The notes under the pieces were generated by a model. The model was not told the origin of the DNA, searched no databases, and was given only the letters and a program-made list of their open reading frames with translations. This document shows positions 1 to 58,270 of a stretch of DNA of 64,000 nucleotides, one piece after another. A program made the translations under genes and the position numbers. Numbering within the stretch: position 1 is the stretch's first letter; every line of letters starts with the position of its first letter. Origin of the DNA: Escherichia coli (GTDB lineage: Bacteria; Pseudomonadota; Gammaproteobacteria; Enterobacterales; Enterobacteriaceae); the NCBI GenBank assembly GCA_031701365.1, contig GCA_031701365.1_4118.1; one strand, written 5' to 3'.

Positions 1-88
1 GTATTCCACGCAGTAAGTACGAAAAAAGTAGTTGCCATTGATAGTAAAGTACTGTAATATAGTTTCATTAACTCAAGGAGTCAATACA

Positions 89-673
89 ATGCGTAACTAT
101 ACTAAATTCATCCGTTCACTTCATGCAATGGAAACTAATAAAGAGATCCTTACAGCTTGTCGGTTAGCTGGTCTGGAGATCGTCGGTGCGGGTTCTTCCC
201 GTATTGTATTCGCTTTAAATGATCGGTTAGTGATTAAGGTCGCTAATAGTGATGCTGGCGTAGATCAAAATGAAACTGAATGTAAGGTATGGAATTTTTT
301 AGATTATGACCGTCCGCACCTTAAACAGTACTTTGCAAAGGTGCATATGCATTTATGCGATCCTGATAATCTGTTTATTGTTATGGATCGTTTGAGTATT
401 GCAAGCAAAGGTAGTGCAAAGCACATAACGGCCTGTAATGAATTAAAGTACAATGCTAAACGTAAAACTATTGAACGCCAACACCATTTTGCCGATGCAC
501 TACAACACGTCGATGATACATTATCAACACTAACGATCATTGATATCAGCAAGACGAACATAGGCCAGGATCGCAACGGCTTGATTAAAGTACTTGATTA
601 CGGTTTAACCCGCAATATCTGGAATCAGTACTATAAAAAGCGTGATGTAAAAACCGTAACAATAACACGATAA
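89..673 (+). CDS. putative protein kinase-like protein
   Basis: ORF 32-673; likely start ATG 89 after AAGGAG. Gly-rich loop GAGSSRIVF, VIKV lysine, DISKTNIGQD catalytic-loop-like and DYG (DFG-like) motifs. Confidence 0.45.
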   Translation: MRNYTKFIRSLHAMETNKEILTACRLAGLEIVGAGSSRIVFALNDRLVIKVANSDAGVDQNETECKVWNFLDYDRPHLKQYFAKVHMHLCDPDNLFIVMDRLSIASKGSAKHITACNELKYNAKRKTIERQHHFADALQHVDDTLSTLTIIDISKTNIGQDRNGLIKVLDYGLTRNIWNQYYKKRDVKTVTITR

Positions 674-687
674 AAAAGATTAAAAAA

Positions 688-716
688 GGGATTGACTCAG
701 GTCAGTCCCTTTGCTA
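688..716 (+). terminator. rho-independent terminator-like hairpin
   Basis: GGGATTGAC-tcag-GTCAGTCCC inverted repeat followed by T-rich tract. Confidence 0.5.
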
Positions 717-744
717 TTATATATTCATTGAGAGATAACTCACT

Positions 745-775
745 GACCCATAGGGTGCGGAAGTGTATCTATTAT
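745..775 (+). promoter_or_regulatory. conserved intergenic box, copy 1
   Basis: CCCATAGGGTGCGGAAGTGTATCT; near-identical copy at 2665-2690, each downstream of a hairpin and upstream of a promoter cassette. Confidence 0.4.
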
Positions 776-809
776 ATAAGTATTCAGTACTGAAAACTAT
801 TTTATAAAA

Positions 810-875
810 AGTACTTGCATTGTACTTAGAATCAAGTATAATGTTTTATATCGAGAGGGGGAAATGGTTCTCCCT
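810..875 (+). promoter_or_regulatory. PeSL-like cassette 1: early-type promoter plus 5-prime UTR stem-loop
   Basis: -35 TTGCAT 815-820, 16-bp spacer, -10 TATAAT 837-842; hairpin AGGGGGAA-atgg-TTCTCCCT 855-874 just upstream of RBS. Confidence 0.6.
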
Positions 876-896
876 GGTACATTAAGGAATAAAATC

Positions 897-1118
897 ATGA
901 CTACGATGACTTGCGTTCACGCTTCAAATCTTCTGAATGATGCAGCATTTAAAGCAGGTGAAGAATATCAATGCTATCGGGATGAAAATAAAAAAGTTTT
1001 CGTCGTTGATGCTAACGGTTTCCATATTGAATTACAATCCGGCTTCACTGGTGTTGATGGTAAATCAGTATGGGGCGTACAGGACGATAACGGTACATAT
1101 CATTTTAAACGTAATTAA
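897..1118 (+). CDS. hypothetical small early protein
   Basis: ORF 864-1118, start moved to ATG 897 after AAGGA RBS downstream of cassette 1. Confidence 0.6.
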   Translation: MTTMTCVHASNLLNDAAFKAGEEYQCYRDENKKVFVVDANGFHIELQSGFTGVDGKSVWGVQDDNGTYHFKRN

Positions 1119-1121
1119 GTA

Positions 1122-1180
1122 TTGACAAAGTATATCAGTACTGTATAATAGTTTACATCAAGGGGAGAATAGTTCTCCCC
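1122..1180 (+). promoter_or_regulatory. PeSL-like cassette 2
   Basis: -35 TTGACA 1122-1127, TG-extended -10 TATAAT 1144-1149; hairpin GGGGAGA-atagt-TCTCCCC 1162-1180. Confidence 0.6.
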
Positions 1181-1202
1181 ACCAATAAAAGGAAACAAAA
1201 TT

Positions 1203-1475
1203 ATGTCCAGCTACTCCGCTACTATGATTATTAAAGATATGAACGGTAATCCTACTTCTGCTGGTGGATCATTTGGTAACATTAACTTAGATGGTCGGTT
1301 ATCAATTGAATCAGCCATCAATGCCGCGAAAGAAGTTTTTAAGAATGAATGTACTGTAAGCAAGCTGGATTATATGGGCTTCGCTATCGAGAAAACTAAT
1401 CGTTTTGTGGACTACAAAAAACCACTGATGATCGATACTAACCTGAAAGCTAACGAAGTGGAATACTTATTATGA
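1203..1475 (+). CDS. hypothetical small early protein
   Basis: ORF with AAAGGA RBS; downstream of cassette 2. Confidence 0.65.
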   Translation: MSSYSATMIIKDMNGNPTSAGGSFGNINLDGRLSIESAINAAKEVFKNECTVSKLDYMGFAIEKTNRFVDYKKPLMIDTNLKANEVEYLL

Positions 1476-1663
1476 CAGTAGAAGAAGTTAAAAAAGTACT
1501 GGCAGTACTACGCTATCATAATCATTGTAAGGTGAAGAATGATCCTGATTATCTTGATTCATCGCTGGAAGAGGATACACTACAAGCAATAAGCCATATG
1601 CAAAAAATGCTTAAGCGTATGACCGAAAAGAATAGGCCGGACTATATAGGAAATAAAATTTAA
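1472..1663 (+). CDS. hypothetical small protein
   Basis: ORF whose start overlaps upstream stop (ATGA), translationally coupled. Confidence 0.55.
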   Translation: MTVEEVKKVLAVLRYHNHCKVKNDPDYLDSSLEEDTLQAISHMQKMLKRMTEKNRPDYIGNKI

Positions 1664-1670
1664 AAAGTAC

Positions 1671-1727
1671 TTGCATTGTAAGTAAAACAAAGTATAATGT
1701 TTTGCATAGGGGGAGATATCCTCCCCC
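1671..1727 (+). promoter_or_regulatory. PeSL-like cassette 3
   Basis: -35 TTGCAT 1671-1676, -10 TATAAT 1693-1698; hairpin GGGGGAG-atatc-CTCCCCC 1709-1727. Confidence 0.6.
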
Positions 1728-1746
1728 ACTAATAAGGAGTACTAAA

Positions 1747-1971
1747 ATGGCTAACTTTGATGAACTGATGCGGGAAGTAGCTACCCTGGCAGAAGAGAAG
1801 AAATCATTTGATTCTATCTATAACACCGCTTACAGTGATTCAGTACTGGCATGTACTCAGGATCAAAAAGATGAACTGATCGCCACCTATCATGAAGCAT
1901 GGAAGTATTACCGCCAATGGGAGAAAGAAGAAAGCGAGTCTACCATCAACGGCCTCAATAATCTAATCTAA
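1747..1971 (+). CDS. hypothetical small early protein
   Basis: ORF 1702-1971, start moved to ATG 1747 after AAGGAG RBS. Confidence 0.65.
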   Translation: MANFDELMREVATLAEEKKSFDSIYNTAYSDSVLACTQDQKDELIATYHEAWKYYRQWEKEESESTINGLNNLI

Positions 1972-2046
1972 AGTTTTATTTCAGTACTATTATCATAGCG
2001 TGATAGTACTGTTGTGATAACTTTACTAACTACAAGGGGAAACATA

Positions 2047-2304
2047 ATGGAACAGTTTAAAACGTATCGGGTAAATCCAATCGCCACAGCCTACGTAGAA
2101 GACCATAAAACATTACCAGTACAGACACCAATCAAAGGCCGTATCTATCGTGCTATGCAGTGGAATAACGCCTATAATGGCTATAAAGCGGTATCCGCTG
2201 CAATGTACTTAGGGGATGGCGAATGGTTTGATCCAAATAATCCTGGTGCACTCGATAGTACTGAAAAAATGAAATGGGCCGACTATATCGAAGATATCTC
2301 ATAA
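2047..2304 (+). CDS. hypothetical small protein (MYLGDGE motif)
   Basis: ORF 2014-2304, start at ATG 2047; shares MYLGDGE motif with ORF 21801-22109. Confidence 0.6.
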   Translation: MEQFKTYRVNPIATAYVEDHKTLPVQTPIKGRIYRAMQWNNAYNGYKAVSAAMYLGDGEWFDPNNPGALDSTEKMKWADYIEDIS

Positions 2305-2311
2305 AAACTAT

Positions 2312-2373
2312 TTGACAGTACTACAAGATAATGTATAATGTTTTACATAGAGCGGGGGAATAGTTCTCCCGCA
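2312..2373 (+). promoter_or_regulatory. PeSL-like cassette 4
   Basis: -35 TTGACA 2312-2317, TG-extended -10 TATAAT 2334-2339; imperfect hairpin GCGGGGGA..TCTCCCGC 2352-2373. Confidence 0.6.
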
Positions 2374-2392
2374 CCTTTAGGAGTAAAACATT

Positions 2393-2593
2393 ATGTCAAT
2401 CGCTAACGAATTGGTTGCAGTACTGAATGAAGCAAAAGCCAACTGCATCGATGTACAGATCAAAGAGCTTGGCAATGGCTTGATCGGCTGTACATGTTCA
2501 GTTCAAACGGCTACCGATTATCGGGAAGTGGAATCACTCGAATCACTGGTACGGTATATTAAAATCCTGGTAGAAGATTGGAGAATCATCTAA
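2393..2593 (+). CDS. hypothetical small early protein
   Basis: ORF with TAGGAG RBS downstream of cassette 4. Confidence 0.65.
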   Translation: MSIANELVAVLNEAKANCIDVQIKELGNGLIGCTCSVQTATDYREVESLESLVRYIKILVEDWRII

Positions 2594-2611
2594 CAAAAAA
2601 GAATAAAAAAA

Positions 2612-2640
2612 GGAGTTGACTTCGGTCCGCTCCTTTAGTA
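2612..2640 (+). terminator. terminator-like hairpin
   Basis: GGAGTTGAC-ttcg-GTCCGCTCC followed by TTT. Confidence 0.45.
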
Positions 2641-2664
2641 CTATATACGCATAGACAAAAACTA

Positions 2665-2690
2665 GCCCACAGGGTGCAGAGAAGTATCTG
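2665..2690 (+). promoter_or_regulatory. conserved intergenic box, copy 2
   Basis: CCCACAGGGTGCAGAGAAGTATCT, homologous to 745-775. Confidence 0.4.
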
Positions 2691-2766
2691 TAAGATAGTT
2701 AATAACGGTGAGTAACTATCTGCTGGTGGATGTAATTCCAGTACTCAAAACTATTTCAAAAAAGTA

Positions 2767-2830
2767 TTGACAAAGTATAGCAGTACTGCAATAATGTATC
2801 TCGTAGGGCGGCAATGGTGCGACGGCCCAC
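2767..2830 (+). promoter_or_regulatory. PeSL-like cassette 5
   Basis: -35 TTGACA 2767-2772, -10 AATAAT about 2790-2795; GC-rich imperfect hairpin GGGCGGC..GGCCC 2806-2828. Confidence 0.5.
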
Positions 2831-2848
2831 AAAGTTAGGAGCTTCATC

Positions 2849-3175
2849 ATGAGTACTTCAATCGCTATCGTTAAAGCTTTCATCCGTACCAATTTCGACC
2901 GCATTACTGTTGATGGTAATGATCGGGAAGTAGAATACTCTTTCATTGTTGCACAAACCGCAAACGGTGCACGCTATATCTTAAACGATAGTGAAGCTAA
3001 CCACTACTTCTATAATAAAGGATTACACTACATCCCTAGCGAAGTAGTCTACACTAAGATGAATAAGCTGGTAGACAAGATTAACGCTAAAGGTACTATC
3101 GATTTACAGTACTGGACCGAAACAGATCCAGAATACGGATCACATCGTTACCTGAATCCAGGTATTAAAATGTAA
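2849..3175 (+). CDS. hypothetical small early protein
   Basis: ORF with AGGAG RBS. Confidence 0.65.
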   Translation: MSTSIAIVKAFIRTNFDRITVDGNDREVEYSFIVAQTANGARYILNDSEANHYFYNKGLHYIPSEVVYTKMNKLVDKINAKGTIDLQYWTETDPEYGSHRYLNPGIKM

Positions 3176-3182
3176 AAAGTAC

Positions 3183-3245
3183 TTGCATAGTACTTAGAAT
3201 CAAGTATAATGTTTTACATAGAGAGGGGGAAATGGTTCTCCCTCC
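3183..3245 (+). promoter_or_regulatory. PeSL-like cassette 6, near-identical to cassette 1
   Basis: -35 TTGCAT 3183-3188, -10 TATAAT 3205-3210; hairpin AGGGGGAAATGGTTCTCCCT 3223-3242; about 70 bp nearly identical to 808-875. Confidence 0.6.
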
Positions 3246-3264
3246 TAAATTAAGGAGTTTTATC

Positions 3265-3666
3265 ATGACCTTCTCAATCACTTCCTTCGCTGACGTTTTA
3301 GTACTGGCTCGGACTTTTGGTAAAGATGCACTGGAGTACGCTGTAAGTAATGGCACTCTCCAACCGGAACAATGCCGCATCATTGGAAACTGTAAACGTT
3401 GGGCGGTATCCAATACTATTGCACTAGAAAACTTCAACGATGGTAACAATGAGTATTCAGTTGATGCAGTATTCGAAGCCGTTGATCTTGGCGGTATCTA
3501 TAACACTAACCTAAATGATGTGCGTATCGTTCGCACGGGGTTCGGTGCTTATGATGTATCTATCCGTGAAGCTATGAACACCGGATACATTAGTAAGGAC
3601 TTACTTGCTCACATCATGCAGCTATGGACGGAACGTAACGAAGCACGCACTATCTTAGGACTATAA
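3265..3666 (+). CDS. hypothetical protein
   Basis: ORF 3232-3666, start moved to ATG 3265 after AAGGAG RBS. Confidence 0.65.
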   Translation: MTFSITSFADVLVLARTFGKDALEYAVSNGTLQPEQCRIIGNCKRWAVSNTIALENFNDGNNEYSVDAVFEAVDLGGIYNTNLNDVRIVRTGFGAYDVSIREAMNTGYISKDLLAHIMQLWTERNEARTILGL

Positions 3667-3944: not shown

Positions 3945-4135
3945 TGCGTAAAGGGATCTAGTACTGATTCAGAAAAAAGTCAAGGCGTTTTTAAAATTAT
4001 GCGTTAAAAAAATGCATAGGTAATCCCTTGACTTTTTTGAAATAAAAGGGATTGGACTATGGCAAAATGCGTAGGGGGCTAAAGGGCGGGTAACCTTAGC
4101 GACTTCGATAAAGGGGTATTACGAATAAAATGTTA

Positions 4136-4163: not shown

Positions 4164-4193
4164 ATGATTGATATTATTTTCAAGGGAGTCCCT

Positions 4194-4391
4194 ATGCGTA
4201 TTTTAACTCAAGCAGAACACCACGAAAGACTTATCAATAACATGGCTATGATAATGTATAAGTCACATGAACGTGGTATTGCCTATAAGCGTGAATTAAT
4301 TATGGCACTATTCATTGGAACTAACTTTCAGGAAAGGTATGTCAAGGATTGGATTTGGTATTTAATTGAAGATGTAACGAGTAAACTATGA
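4194..4391 (+). CDS. family A small protein 1
   Basis: C-terminal FIGTNFQERYV..IEDVTSKL; start moved to ATG 4194. Confidence 0.65.
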   Translation: MRILTQAEHHERLINNMAMIMYKSHERGIAYKRELIMALFIGTNFQERYVKDWIWYLIEDVTSKL

Positions 4392-4588
4392 AAATGCGTA
4401 AATTAACCGAAAAAGAATATCAATCACTGTTACGTAAAAACTACGTAAAGATTTACAATACAGACACACACGTAGAACGAATGGAGTTATACCTTTTGAT
4501 TACATTGGGAACTAACTATCAGGATGCATGGGTGATTCAATATATGGATGCATTGAAAAATGAAATATTGTCCACGAGGAAACAATGA
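4388..4588 (+). CDS. family A small protein 2
   Basis: LGTNYQDAWV motif; ATGA overlap with upstream stop. Confidence 0.65.
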   Translation: MKMRKLTEKEYQSLLRKNYVKIYNTDTHVERMELYLLITLGTNYQDAWVIQYMDALKNEILSTRKQ

Positions 4589-4794
4589 AAACTATAACAC
4601 GAACCCAATCATTCGGACTTATCTTGAAATACATGGACTTAATGGTGGATATCAGCAAAGACCTGCCTAAAACTGCAATTGAAGTTGCAAGAGCAGAGAT
4701 CCGCATGTTGGCTGTACTGAACACAAACCATCAGGAAGAGTATGTTGACGATTGGATTCGATTTTTAATAGAAGATATTAAGAGTAAACTATGA
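4585..4794 (+). CDS. family A small protein 3
   Basis: LNTNHQEEYV..IEDIKSKL. Confidence 0.65.
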   Translation: MKTITRTQSFGLILKYMDLMVDISKDLPKTAIEVARAEIRMLAVLNTNHQEEYVDDWIRFLIEDIKSKL

Positions 4795-5003
4795 TTATAT
4801 TAACACCTGAAGAATATAAGAAACGTTTTAAATCTGTCCAGGCTGAAATATTACTTATATACCTTTCAAATGCAGATCTTAACTTATCAAGGGTAATGGA
4901 GAAGGATTTACTTATGGGTGCATTTTTGGATACAGACTTTCAGGAGTATTATGTAGGAGAATACTTTATTGCACTTCAGAACCACATTAAGAGTAAACTA
5001 TGA
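4791..5003 (+). CDS. family A small protein 4
   Basis: LDTDFQEYYV..IKSKL. Confidence 0.65.
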   Translation: MIILTPEEYKKRFKSVQAEILLIYLSNADLNLSRVMEKDLLMGAFLDTDFQEYYVGEYFIALQNHIKSKL

Positions 5004-5215
5004 TTATTCTAGAAAAATCATATCAATATACTGAACGCATCGCTGCCAGACAACTTGAAATCCTCATAATATACGAAGAGACTTCTGATTTAAACTTAGC
5101 CGAGGTATTGGAAAATGAAATACTTTTGGGTGCATTCTTGGGAACAGACTATCAGGAGTATTATGAGGAAAAGTATTTGTCATCTCTTGAGAAATACGTC
5201 AGGAGCAAACTATGA
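5000..5215 (+). CDS. family A small protein 5
   Basis: LGTDYQEYYE..VRSKL. Confidence 0.65.
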   Translation: MIILEKSYQYTERIAARQLEILIIYEETSDLNLAEVLENEILLGAFLGTDYQEYYEEKYLSSLEKYVRSKL

Positions 5216-11023: not shown

Positions 11024-11384
11024 ACAAGTAATATTCCTTTTGAATACAAGAAGTGAAATGTATACAGAGTTTAAAGAGATTAATGCATTTTATCAGAATT
11101 TTGTAATTCAAGAGTTCAGTGATTTAATTACAGATGCATTATTTGAATTATCGGAAAAATACAAAGGAACAGAGTTCAGTGTTAAGAATGTATTACGTTC
11201 TTTATCAAAGCGTATAATAAAATTAGATCATTTTACATTTGACAATAAAGATTTATTCAGTCACAATCCAAGTACAGCTTTATATTTTATTCCTGATTCA
11301 GACAAAAATCATCCTATTCATTACGGATGGATTTTGTCGTACATAGTACAAGGAAAGGAGTATCCTATTAAATGGAACGATTAG
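10995..11384 (+). CDS. family B-like protein 3 (divergent)
   Basis: AFYQNFVIQE variant motif; placement in family tentative. Confidence 0.45.
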   Translation: MNPTIVQDLKQVIFLLNTRSEMYTEFKEINAFYQNFVIQEFSDLITDALFELSEKYKGTEFSVKNVLRSLSKRIIKLDHFTFDNKDLFSHNPSTALYFIPDSDKNHPIHYGWILSYIVQGKEYPIKWND

Positions 11385-41015: not shown

Positions 41016-41629
41016 ATCCTGAAAGGTTCCCATAAGGAAATGATTAAAAGCCTAATCCACTCGAAAATGTAGAGGGTAGATGAGTAGTCCTTTCAGTACG
41101 AACAGCAGATGAAACCCGTTAGATGATGGCATAGTTTGAACCACTCACGGCAATGCGGCTGTATAAAGAACTCCAATAGGATAAAGAGAGTTCCTCGATA
41201 GACATATAAGGATCGCACCTTACCAATTATCTAAGGGAGATTTCATAAGAAATATGCGGTCGGAATTATACAATATAGTTGCGTCCAAATTTTGTGAAAT
41301 CAAATACAAGTACTGGTCATATGGTATTTGTATTATGTGTCGGGATGTTTAAGACCGACGACCGTTGCTACAAGAACCGCGATAGAGAGAAACAGAGCAA
41401 CCCGCTTTCGTCTCGTAAGAGAATTCGTGATATGAACTATGTGAAGGCCACCAGCGTCAAATTTTTTTGTTCTTTCCCCTGCGGGGGGATGAAATATGCT
41501 CAAGCAAACCCCGTCAATATTAATTAAAAGAAAATAGTACTTGTAGAATTAAACATGCGTAGCATGATAATTCTACTGATGTTGATGCAATCAACGTCAC
41601 GTATATTCATTGATGTTTCCATAGGAATA

Positions 41630-50013: not shown

Positions 50014-51152
50014 CCCTTTTACAAATATATGAAGATTTAATGCACTTATGTAATACAAACGATGCATTCTTTTATGTGGATCATAAAAGTCCTGCTGGTG
50101 GCACGTATCGTGTATTCAGTTATCGCCTAGCATCATACACTGATTTCATGCAACCAAATGCGTTGGAAACCCGTGGCTCTATGTGGGAAATTGATGAAGA
50201 AGGTGACATGATACGTTGTGCAGCACGTACAATGAAAAAGTTCTTCAATGCTTACGAGAATCCTGCTACAATGTTCCCTGCTAACACCACATGCGATGAC
50301 ATTGCGGTCGTGATGCCTAAGTTGGATGGTTCGATTATCAGTACTTATCGTGATAATGATGGTGAGATTCGTTGTAAATCACATACTGCATTGTATTCTG
50401 ACCATGCGATTAACAGTACTCGACTTATTAACGAGAACCAGAATTTGTATCAGTACATCGACGAAGCGGAACGTTTAGGTTACACAGTTAATATGGAGTA
50501 TACAAGCCCAGAGTACCGAATTGTATTACCATATCAGGTAGAACAACTGTTTGTACTGAACGTTCGACATCGTGTGAGTGGTGAGTTGCTATGTGGTAAA
50601 GCACTACGTGATAAGTTTCCATGTCTTGCACAGTACAGTACTAATATGACCGGAAAAGATATTCATCACACTTTTCCGGTACGAAATACCTTCCGTGAAA
50701 GCGTGGAGGAAGTTCATAAAATGCTTGATATTGAGGGTTTTGTGTGCATCCTAAATAATGGGACAATGTGTAAAATAAAAACTGACTGGTACAGTTCATT
50801 ACATCTTACAAAAGATAGTATTATTATTGATTCTCATTTATATGAAGCCGTATTAAATGGTTCAAGTGATGATTTAAAACAATTGTTCAGTACTGATGAA
50901 TATGCTATGCAAAAGATATTAAGAATGGAACATTTGGTATTTTCGTGCTATAATGCATTACAAGATGAAGTAGAAAGCTTCGTCAAGGAACACAAGCACT
51001 TGGAGCGAAAGGAATTCGCAATGAAGGTTCAGGAGTGTTTAACTAATGAACTGAATCGTCAGGGCTTGGCCTTTGCAATGTATAACAATAAGAAAGTTGA
51101 TTACAAAGAGACTCTTATAAAATACATGAAAATTGTACTAAAGGATTTTTAG
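50010..51152 (+). CDS. rnlA: RNA ligase 1 (T4 Rnl1 homolog)
   Basis: Recalled alignment to T4 Rnl1 over N-terminal region (FFY..D, GxxYRxFSY, ALExRG, MPKLDGS), including lysine-nucleotidyltransferase KxDG motif. Confidence 0.9.
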   Translation: MTLLQIYEDLMHLCNTNDAFFYVDHKSPAGGTYRVFSYRLASYTDFMQPNALETRGSMWEIDEEGDMIRCAARTMKKFFNAYENPATMFPANTTCDDIAVVMPKLDGSIISTYRDNDGEIRCKSHTALYSDHAINSTRLINENQNLYQYIDEAERLGYTVNMEYTSPEYRIVLPYQVEQLFVLNVRHRVSGELLCGKALRDKFPCLAQYSTNMTGKDIHHTFPVRNTFRESVEEVHKMLDIEGFVCILNNGTMCKIKTDWYSSLHLTKDSIIIDSHLYEAVLNGSSDDLKQLFSTDEYAMQKILRMEHLVFSCYNALQDEVESFVKEHKHLERKEFAMKVQECLTNELNRQGLAFAMYNNKKVDYKETLIKYMKIVLKDF

Positions 51153-57860: not shown

Positions 57861-58270
57861 AATTGTATTGCTTAACTAATATGTACTGTCAAGGTGTCCA
57901 AGCTGGTATTCAAGCATTCCATGCTGGTGTTAAACTAATTAAAGAATATGAAGGTACTGCTTTCAGTACTATTATTGATGAATGGTACTATGAACACGAA
58001 ACTATTGTAGTACTAAATGCTGGTGGACATGATAAATTAAATTCTTATTATAACAACCTTAGCAAACAGGGGAAAGTTCCGTTTGCCAAATTCAATGAAG
58101 CTGGGTTGAATGATGCTATTACCTGTGTAGCAGTACTGTGTACGTCTGAAATGATTGAAGACATGGCTGTTATGCGTATGAATCTTCCTGCTGGTGATCA
58201 ACTAATGCAAGTAAAATATGGTGCATTGTTTGACACACTAAAAGCAATCAGTACAATGAGGACTATTTGA
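57857..58270 (+). CDS. hypothetical protein
   Basis: ORF 57851-58270; ATGA overlap start 57857. Confidence 0.55.
   Translation: MKLYCLTNMYCQGVQAGIQAFHAGVKLIKEYEGTAFSTIIDEWYYEHETIVVLNAGGHDKLNSYYNNLSKQGKVPFAKFNEAGLNDAITCVAVLCTSEMIEDMAVMRMNLPAGDQLMQVKYGALFDTLKAISTMRTI

Follow-up and report, generated by a model that had tools for sequence, protein, structure and literature searches.

A repeated unit of predicted early promoter and conserved two-hairpin RNA module in the terminal repeats of Asteriusvirus jumbo phages and in their relatives

Several described systems come close to the element reported here, a unit that occurs twice (copies A and B) in a 64,000-nt stretch of DNA from an Escherichia coli assembly (GCA_031701365.1, contig GCA_031701365.1_4118.1; the window). 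In the PeSL (promoter-early stem-loop) cassettes of T4-like phages, terminator and promoter form one composite motif, and a stem-loop may overlap the -35 element (Arbiol et al. 2010, PMC2839356; Comeau et al. 2014, PMC4122927). Like them, the unit is intergenic, AT-rich, and placed directly after the stop codon of the upstream gene, combines a sigma-70-type promoter with a GC-rich stem-loop, and recurs many times in a plastic early region populated by small ORFan genes. A PeSL, however, closes with the Shine-Dalgarno sequence and start codon of the next gene, whereas the unit runs into a ~45-nt two-hairpin module that is conserved across phage genera and is followed by a promoter, a terminator, or an inverted partner. 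The nut sites of lambda and the put sites of HK022 likewise combine one or two small promoter-proximal hairpins with a conserved sequence in an early region of terminator-separated genes. In contrast to lambda nut, the unit lacks boxA (CGCTCTTA-like), its hairpin precedes the linear box, and the loops of its first hairpin are 6 to 8 nt long rather than GNRA-like pentaloops; many units also have no downstream gene or point the wrong way for one, no N-like protein is known, and there is no sequence or Rfam similarity to nut or put.

Phage small RNAs (lambda OOP, P4 CI, and P1 C4) and bacterial sibling small RNAs offer a third comparison. Units followed by a terminator would yield RNAs of about 100 nt from several near-identical genes per genome, each with a hairpin at its 5' end, an exposed stretch that is conserved, an AU-rich part, and, in these relatives, a Rho-independent terminator. 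The window copies differ in lacking a terminator, no target complementarity was found, and nothing matches C4 or another Rfam family. Of the features of Hfq-type small RNAs, the promoter and the conserved stretch are present; 13 of the 76 relatives, but neither window copy, have a terminator after the box. Finally, the distantly related Pseudomonas jumbo phage PA5oct expresses noncoding RNAs from its terminal repeat that are highly abundant from early infection (PMC7318152). These too are noncoding transcripts from the long direct terminal repeat of a jumbo phage, but they are single-copy, 236 to 451 nt long, and without a sequence or structure match to the unit. The unit is best read as a PeSL-like terminator/promoter cassette extended by what would be a new small-RNA or leader module.

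Positions 1 to 3300 of the window match Escherichia phage 121Q at 95.9% identity, and PBECO4 together with some 20 further Asteriusvirus jumbo phages (348 to 386 kb) at about 89%; judged by its sequence, the window corresponds to the terminal-repeat end of such a phage. For phage fEgEco12, whose direct terminal repeat measures 20,993 bp, PhageTerm and restriction digests have located the right physical end. That mapped end, the boundary of the 21-kb repeat, aligns to the window through position 4096, so both copies lie within the last 4 kb of the terminal repeat. Copies A and B are 3.35 and 1.43 kb from the terminus, and their predicted transcription is directed at it. The terminus itself, at 4096/4097, reads ...GGGCGGGTAACCT on one side and TAGCGACTTCG... 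on the other. All genes around the copies are small ORFans on the plus strand, and no Pfam domain was found in the proteins flanking the copies. The parts of the two copies and their immediate surroundings are as follows.

685-712, plus strand: terminator-like hairpin of copy A (terminator scan; 12 bp, stem AAAGGGATTGAC / GTCAGTCCCTTT, loop TCAG)
692-720, plus strand: predicted sigma-70 promoter of copy A (promoter scan, 10/12 matches, extended -10)
727-773, plus strand: predicted transcribed module of copy A (covariance-model match 717-773, 74.5 bits)
774-814, plus strand: A/T-rich stretch after copy A with the palindrome TTCAGTACTGAA (Asteriusvirus comparison)
815-842, plus strand: second, ordinary predicted early promoter, TTGCAT-16-TATAAT, serving gene 897-1118 (sequence and cassette comparison)
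2609-2636, plus strand: terminator-like hairpin of copy B (stem AAGGAGTTGAC / GTCCGCTCCTT, one mismatch, loop TTCG)
2616-2644, plus strand: predicted sigma-70 promoter of copy B (promoter scan, 9/12 matches; family alignment)
2651-2691, plus strand: predicted transcribed module of copy B, short class (covariance-model match 2641-2692, 38.4 bits, E = 6e-7)
2693-2729, plus strand: hairpin found in copy B only, with a Chi site (sequence, folding, and Asteriusvirus comparison)
2767-2795, plus strand: ordinary predicted early promoter, TTGACA-17-AATAAT with TG, serving gene 2849-3175 (promoter scan)

An earlier sequence-only reading of the window had described two intergenic elements, each with a terminator-like hairpin followed about 30 bp later by a nearly identical box, and both are where it placed them. 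The box of copy A (CCCATAGGGTGCGGAAGTGTATCT, 747-770) begins 34 nt past its hairpin and that of copy B (CCCACAGGGTGCAGAGAAGTATCT, 2666-2689) 29 nt past its own; the boxes agree at 19 of 24 positions, with one Y as the sole difference among the first 12. The likeness exceeds chance by several measures. A degenerate 15-mer of the box occurs exactly twice in the 64 kb, and a count of five matches at ≤3 mismatches in the window was reached in 0 of 100 shuffles. The two ~100-nt stretches align at 70 to 71% identity (E = 3e-6 to 3e-8), and the covariance model, built from 16 copies of which none came from the window, finds copy A at E = 1e-16 in addition to copy B. The next-best match in the window scores 18.6 bits. 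The window contains exactly two copies.

What the sequence-only reading had not reported is a promoter whose -35 element lies inside the hairpin, a covarying small hairpin ahead of the box, and compensatory changes in the terminator stem. Copy A has a -35 of TTGACT (692-697), a 17-bp spacer, TG at 712-713, a -10 of TATTAT (715-720), and a predicted start near 727 (promoter scan); copy B has TTGACT (2616-2621), a 17-bp spacer, TACTAT (2639-2644), and a predicted start near 2651. In both, the -35 forms part of the 5' arm of the terminator hairpin. Since the promoter lies between hairpin and box, the box falls within the predicted transcribed region, about 20 to 45 nt past the predicted start.

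That the hairpin is a terminator remains plausible from the scan and from other annotators, although it also provides the -35 region of the unit's own promoter. The hairpin of copy A lies 3' of the stop codon (671-673) of gene 89-673, follows an A-run, precedes TTTGCTATTAT, and folds at -18.5 kcal/mol (z = -5.8). That of copy B lies 3' of the stop codon (2591-2593) of gene 2393-2593, has a cUUCGg-type loop, and folds at -14.4 kcal/mol (z = -4.1). Both have the form of an intrinsic terminator after a stop codon, copy A with 12 bp and T at 5 of 8 tail positions, copy B with a weaker tail (UUUAGUACUAU). The stems of A and B differ by compensatory changes (GGGA/TCCC versus GGAG/CTCC), and orthologues are annotated as "terminator" in phage UE-S1 (both copies) and in G17 (copy B).

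Further copies are numerous. A BLAST search with copy A found 370 places in 68 phage records from eight enterobacterial host genera, the host being taken as the first word of the organism name: Escherichia (33 records), Klebsiella (10), Salmonella (8), Erwinia (7), Yersinia (4), Pectobacterium (2), Cronobacter (2), and Serratia (2). Structure was examined in Escherichia, Klebsiella, and uncultured contigs, and the other host genera are represented by BLAST matches. Asteriusvirus genomes have 4 to 5 such places each, or 10 where the record includes both terminal repeats. Each Asteriusvirus terminal repeat carries five copies; the last 12.7 kb of fEgEco12 hold five units, all oriented to the genome end, and Klebsiella phage K64-1 has nine distinct copies within 18 kb. 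A pattern scan of IMG/VR contributed loci from eight jumbo-phage contigs (345 to 378 kb) and one 109-kb fragment. A profile search of 379 kb of related loci then yielded 76 distinct copies, and the covariance model gave 93 matches in the related loci. No copy was found in PA5oct, and 5,426 E. coli genomes showed no similarity to the unit. Pattern matches in contigs of 44 to 55 kb (L003 and others) were set aside as chance matches since by eye they fall in reverse-transcriptase coding sequence.

Across the 76 copies, positions 1 to 3 of the -35 are T, T, and G in 75, with the following A and C in 69 and 68; A2 and T6 of the -10 are present in every copy; the spacer is 17 bp in 57/76; and an extended -10 TG occurs in 48/76. 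Matches to the consensus promoter average 10.2 of 12. Measured against the features of an RpoD-type promoter (TTGACA-like -35, 16- to 18-bp spacer, and TATAAT-like -10 with A2 and T6), both window copies and the family as a whole qualify as predicted sigma-70 early promoters. All 76 copies hold the promoter at a fixed distance from the module, the -10 being 25 to 29 nt from the box, or 20 to 22 nt in the short class that includes copy B. By comparison, a strong hairpin spans the -35 in 41/76. Given that the copies without this hairpin still retain promoter and box, the conserved unit is the promoter with its transcribed module and not the terminator.

The module comprises a first hairpin (P1), a 3- to 4-nt linker, a second hairpin (P2, R-CCC-AYA-GGG-U), GC, five purine-rich bases, and a UAUCU tail, past which similarity across the family ends. 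In copy A, P1 pairs TGAG (729-732) with CTCA (739-742) around the loop AGATAA (733-738), the linker CTG occupies 743-745, and P2 pairs A746-CCC749 with GGG753-T756 around ATA (750-752); GC (757-758), the purine-rich GGAAG (759-763), and the tail TGTATCTAT (764-772) follow. Copy B has a minimal P1 (TAG 2652-2654 / CTA 2662-2664, loop ACAAAAA) and a P2 of G2665-CCC2668 / GGG2672-T2675 with loop ACA, present in its minimum free energy fold, and then GC and a purine-rich tail ending in GTATCTGT.

P1 varies in sequence while keeping its pairing. More than 20 different complementary stems occupy the one position (TGAG/CTCA, GACG/CGTC, TGGC/GCCG, AGACA/TGTCT, and others) beneath purine-rich loops such as GCGAAA, GAGAAA, AGAUAA, and AGAACAA. 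All four P1 pairs show double compensatory changes, with three to five pair types each, in the model-guided alignment. P1 cells are paired in 95% of cases versus 73% in shuffles (0/500 reach the observed value) and 21 to 61% when partners are slid. A model-guided alignment favors the structure that was modelled; less circular are the raw list of stems, the ranking by mutual information, where the four P1 pairs come out above all other pairs in the alignment, and the alignment-free shuffle test, in which the mean folding energy of the family is 12 standard deviations below that of dinucleotide shuffles. P2 is near-invariant but accepts loops of three or four bases, either A-U or G-U as its foot pair, and a single C-G to U-A swap, a tolerance more in keeping with an RNA than with a dimeric DNA site. 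Identity of module A among six Asteriusvirus genomes is 98.7%, compared with 88% for the region overall and 87.7% for the adjacent gene. The covariation and the further copies support the proposal of the sequence-only reading that the element is a conserved noncoding regulatory site or small RNA. Its third component, a TATA-like stretch after the box, is not conserved across the family: the A/T-rich stretch at 774-814 is 96% conserved in Asteriusvirus but not across genera, merges into the upstream region of the next promoter, and matches neither the T4 late motif TATAAATA nor a conserved -10. When folded, it gives a weak hairpin and no convincing terminator.

Several other identities for the module were considered and set aside. 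A small open reading frame through the box (GTG-nnn-nnn-TGT-ATC-TAT) is interrupted by in-frame stops (GTG CCG TAG at K64-1 14343), lacks usable Shine-Dalgarno spacing, and shows non-periodic conservation; across the family, no conserved reading frame runs through the module, where in-frame stops are present. A pseudoknot between the P1 loop (AGAUA) and the tail (UAUCU) appears in the minimum free energy fold of copy A, but most loop classes are noncomplementary (GCGAAA and AGAACAA) and loop and tail do not covary. The hammerhead-like CUGA...GAA of copy A would suggest a self-cleaving ribozyme, yet these residues are not conserved and there is no Rfam match. For CsrA sites, dif/Xer sites, CRISPR repeats, and ToxI, compared by eye with their motifs, the likeness falls at variable positions or the core residues fail. 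Rfam 15 gave no match at gathering score in the window and none at E up to 5 for positions 600-2900; in the related loci it gave only sub-threshold matches to generic hairpins (miRNA). ARAGORN found no tRNA or tmRNA in the window, and the searchable literature contained no paper with the box sequence or a description of the element.

The surroundings of the 76 copies fall into four classes: another promoter follows 22, an intrinsic terminator 13 (roughly 45 nt past the box start), 20 lie in convergent pairs, and 21 are unclear. The 13 terminator-type and 20 convergent units (33/76) imply that at least 43% of units serve no gene. In K64-1 and several uncultured relatives, all genes share one strand, units appear every three to six genes in either orientation, and several units are antisense to uniformly plus-strand gene arrays. 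What looked like a long hairpin RNA in some relatives resolved into a pair of convergent units, whose box starts are in most cases exactly 68 nt apart. The variable parts of convergent arms are no more alike than those of unrelated units (identity 0.57 versus 0.59); since they do not coevolve, the extended stem is not selected.

Palindromes also occur next to some units. Convergent pairs 79 to 86 nt apart have a Fur-box-like palindrome (GAGAATGATAATCATTT or AATGATTCTCATT) between them (related loci L001 ~11350-11372, L034 ~6090, L004 ~1290, and L008 ~350), and a LexA-box-like palindrome (TACTGTACATAAAAACAGTA) follows some terminator-type units (L009 ~5400, unit 5438-; L027 ~4470, unit 4508-). 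In the window, LexA-type boxes are no more frequent than expected by chance.

We consider the chances about even that the cassette, which recurs throughout the terminal-repeat and early region of RaK2-like jumbo phages, is a self-contained early promoter joined to an RNA module whose RNA is selected as a small RNA or leader and is recognized as a handle or decoy. The upstream hairpin would end transcription of the upstream gene while the same 5' arm supplies the -35 of a near-consensus promoter for host sigma-70; host RNA polymerase would initiate about 7 nt past the -10, and the first 45 to 50 nt of the transcript would be the P1-P2 module. With five to more than 10 gene copies, the module RNA could be abundant immediately after infection and might serve as a handle or decoy that a phage or host factor recognizes mainly through P2. 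Two forms are conceivable, namely, a stand-alone small RNA of about 100 to 180 nt from the terminator-type or convergent copies of relatives and the 5' end of read-through early transcripts, as for both window copies, with a second promoter within 45 to 80 nt and small ORFan genes beyond it. The covariation, the tolerance of loop length, and the G-U pairs point to function as an RNA, and the gene-less contexts together with the high copy number favor a product acting by itself.

Several observations weigh against this proposal. Both window copies and all five Asteriusvirus copies lack a terminator and are co-directional with the genes; each of these is followed within 45 to 80 nt by a second, ordinary early promoter (815-842 and 2767-2795 in the window). 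For the window copies alone, a leader acting purely in cis fits just as well. Searches for RNA targets gave duplex energies against both window strands that were no better than those of shuffled queries and nothing similar in the 5,426 E. coli genomes. Because P2 hardly varies, few changes back its pairing. In the P1 region, both strands fold equally well, which leaves the promoter and the G-U pairs as the grounds for assigning the strand. Copy B shows only average conservation (83%) among the six Asteriusvirus genomes and, with its 3-bp P1, may be a decaying member. Finally, no transcript data for these phages were found in the searchable literature, and the start, 3' end, and abundance of the RNA are predictions.

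A stronger version, to which we give roughly half the weight of the main proposal, is that the abundant immediate-early RNA constitutes a new RNA-based device for host takeover. P2 would capture a host protein, which may be an RNA-binding regulator, a ribonuclease, or an RNA-sensing defense component, or the RNA would reprogram RNA polymerase in a put-like, protein-free manner. Under this proposal, an infecting genome would bring 5 to 20 unit copies because the units lie in both terminal repeats.

Among the competing explanations, the likeliest is a cis-acting leader modelled on lambda nut (boxB hairpin plus linear box) and HK022 put (two promoter-proximal hairpins), although we regard it as rather unlikely. 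Here the P1-P2 RNA, as it emerges and with or without a phage protein, would let polymerase pass the terminators of the early gene arrays, or P1 would shield the transcript from RNase E. The module begins 2 to 5 nt past the predicted start, always directly behind a strong promoter, and P1 is a 3- to 5-bp hairpin of boxB-like size with purine-rich loops (GCGAAA, AGAUAA, and AGAACAA); both window copies stand upstream of arrays of short genes, each with its own hairpin, and the recurrence of units every three to six genes would suit such a role. Set against this are the 33 of 76 units without a downstream gene (terminator or convergent) and the several units that oppose the flanking genes, where read-through would produce antisense RNA. 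There is also no boxA-like sequence, hairpin and linear box come in the opposite order to that in nut, and an N-like or Q-like partner was not identified.

It is improbable that the box is a DNA operator at which a phage or host protein, bound about 20 to 45 nt past the predicted start, would act as a roadblock that shuts off the strong early promoters, with convergent pairs as double operators. The box is the most invariant part of the unit, its CCC-N3-GGG is partly palindromic, the convergent pairs mostly keep the fixed 68-nt spacing, and an orientation-independent function would match the orientations observed. However, the P2 spacer is 3 or 4 nt and the foot pair A-T or G-T, which breaks the symmetry of a DNA site; the remainder of the box is not palindromic, and compensatory changes in P1 would be meaningless for a site in duplex DNA.

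We assign an equally small chance to a pure PeSL shuffling cassette, in which the unit would be a homology patch for recombination of modules, as in T4-like phages, and the transcribed part would be kept by gene conversion instead of function. The hairpin over the -35, the AT-rich site after a stop codon, and the ORFan neighbors all agree with the description of PeSLs, and indels and a break in similarity adjoin copy B among Asteriusvirus genomes, with Chi sites beside some copies. Yet gene conversion should homogenize whole copies, whereas P1 stems differ within a genome while remaining complementary and the box stays fixed. The box is moreover conserved across genera at about 75% overall DNA identity, and the units do not end as PeSLs do.

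An origin-type element is highly improbable: its promoter transcripts would form an R-loop in A/T-rich DNA from which replication is primed, in the manner of T4 oriF/oriG or the T7 primary origin, and the promoter followed by an A/T-rich stretch and the location in a terminal repeat are in keeping with this, but five to more than 10 copies cluster within 10 to 20 kb, the convergent layout is the wrong geometry for bidirectional priming, and the A/T-rich part is not conserved in the family. Least probable of all is the suggestion of the sequence-only reading that box and A/T-rich stretch form a MotA-type middle promoter, for which (a/t)(a/t)(a/t)TGCTT(t/c)A should replace the -35 near -30, 11 to 13 bp upstream of a TAnnnT -10: the only likeness, TTTGCT in copy A, directly abuts the -10, no TGCTT-type box lies at -30, TTGACT stands as a canonical -35 at 17 bp in both copies and nearly all 76 relatives, and the box is downstream of the predicted start. 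For this phage group, published promoter surveys describe RpoD-like, TGAAACG-type, and ATAAATA late promoters rather than MotA boxes, and the one covering the related phage CBB, in which MotA goes unmentioned, lists an additional sigma factor and a gp55-like factor.

Other repeats share this region with the units. The Chi sequence (GCTGGTGG) occurs five times in the window versus about 0.3 times expected, with a strand bias.

1260-1267, 2722-2729, 50094-50101, and 58019-58026, plus strand: Chi sites (sequence)
41448-41455, minus strand: Chi site (sequence)

The last 12.7 kb before the mapped end of fEgEco12 (L037) hold eight Chi sites in one orientation and none reversed, and 206 kb of related early-region loci hold 81 versus about 1 expected. 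RecBCD entering from that DNA end would recognize Chi in the observed orientation, which suggests protection of the DNA end. One site directly follows copy B (2722-2729), after the hairpin peculiar to that copy (9 bp, AGATAGTTA 2693-2701 / TAACTATCT 2713-2721); hairpin and Chi together (2693-2729) are 97% conserved in Asteriusvirus. Others lie in the promoter spacers of related units. Right after the Chi of copy B, at 2730-2766, similarity among Asteriusvirus genomes falls to 16 to 48% per 10-nt bin and recovers at the promoter at 2767; most BLAST alignments of copy B orthologues stop at query position 137, which is window position 2730. Judged from these alignments, the break may be a recombination junction.

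The window contains 200 occurrences of the palindrome AGTACT versus 17 expected (for example, at 786, 810, 1137, 1983, 2005, 2740, and 2782), and CAGTACTG occurs 44 times versus 0.7. AGTACT flanks -35 boxes (GTACTTGACA) and -10 boxes (CAGTACTGnTATAAT), often as inverted pairs, and is not present in the 4- to 8-kb and 12- to 16-kb bins; it could be a factor-binding or modification site. GATC is underrepresented (108 versus 217 expected).

A second repeated cassette, the ordinary early cassette, precedes almost every small gene at 800-3260: AAAAAGTACTTGCAT-N16-TATAATGTTTTAYATAGAG, a hairpin in the 5' untranslated region (GGGGGAAnnGTTCTCCC, -11 to -16 kcal/mol), AAGGAG, and ATG.

837, 1693, 2334, and 3205: -10 boxes of the second cassette (sequence)
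1144 and 2790: variant -10 boxes of the second cassette (sequence)

With its order of promoter, untranslated-region hairpin, Shine-Dalgarno sequence, and ATG, this cassette is PeSL-like, its stem-loop lying downstream of the -10. The promoter at 815-842, with a hairpin downstream at about 856-875, places the copy A promoter in tandem with another promoter. Open reading frame callers push gene starts upstream into these hairpins or into the unit region: for window genes 864-1118 and 3232-3666, the starts supported by a Shine-Dalgarno sequence are 897 and 3265, and the UE-S1 coding sequence UES1_266 (related locus L041, 942-1298) likewise runs into a unit. In public records, the units are without annotation or are covered by a "hypothetical protein." Just inside the unique region, adjoining the terminal-repeat boundary, positions 4164-5215 encode five tandem paralogues of 66 to 75 amino acids each, with overlapping stop and start codons and a common C-terminal pattern, ...T(N/D)(F/Y/H)Q(E/D)xYV...SKL.

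Very few phage-encoded regulatory RNAs are known, and the early regions of jumbo phages are almost wholly unannotated. What is new here is an RNA module conserved in sequence and structure that has its own predicted consensus promoter and is present in many copies in the terminal repeat that is expressed first. The module is found in neither Rfam nor genome annotations, appears common to phages of eight enterobacterial host genera, and can be annotated with the covariance model. Since terminator and promoter share bases, the unit also offers a compact part for synthetic biology. The units would provide a defined and readily mutable handle on early host takeover in a group that includes several phage-therapy candidates; if the proposed host-takeover device is real, it would represent a new class common to RaK2-like jumbo phages.

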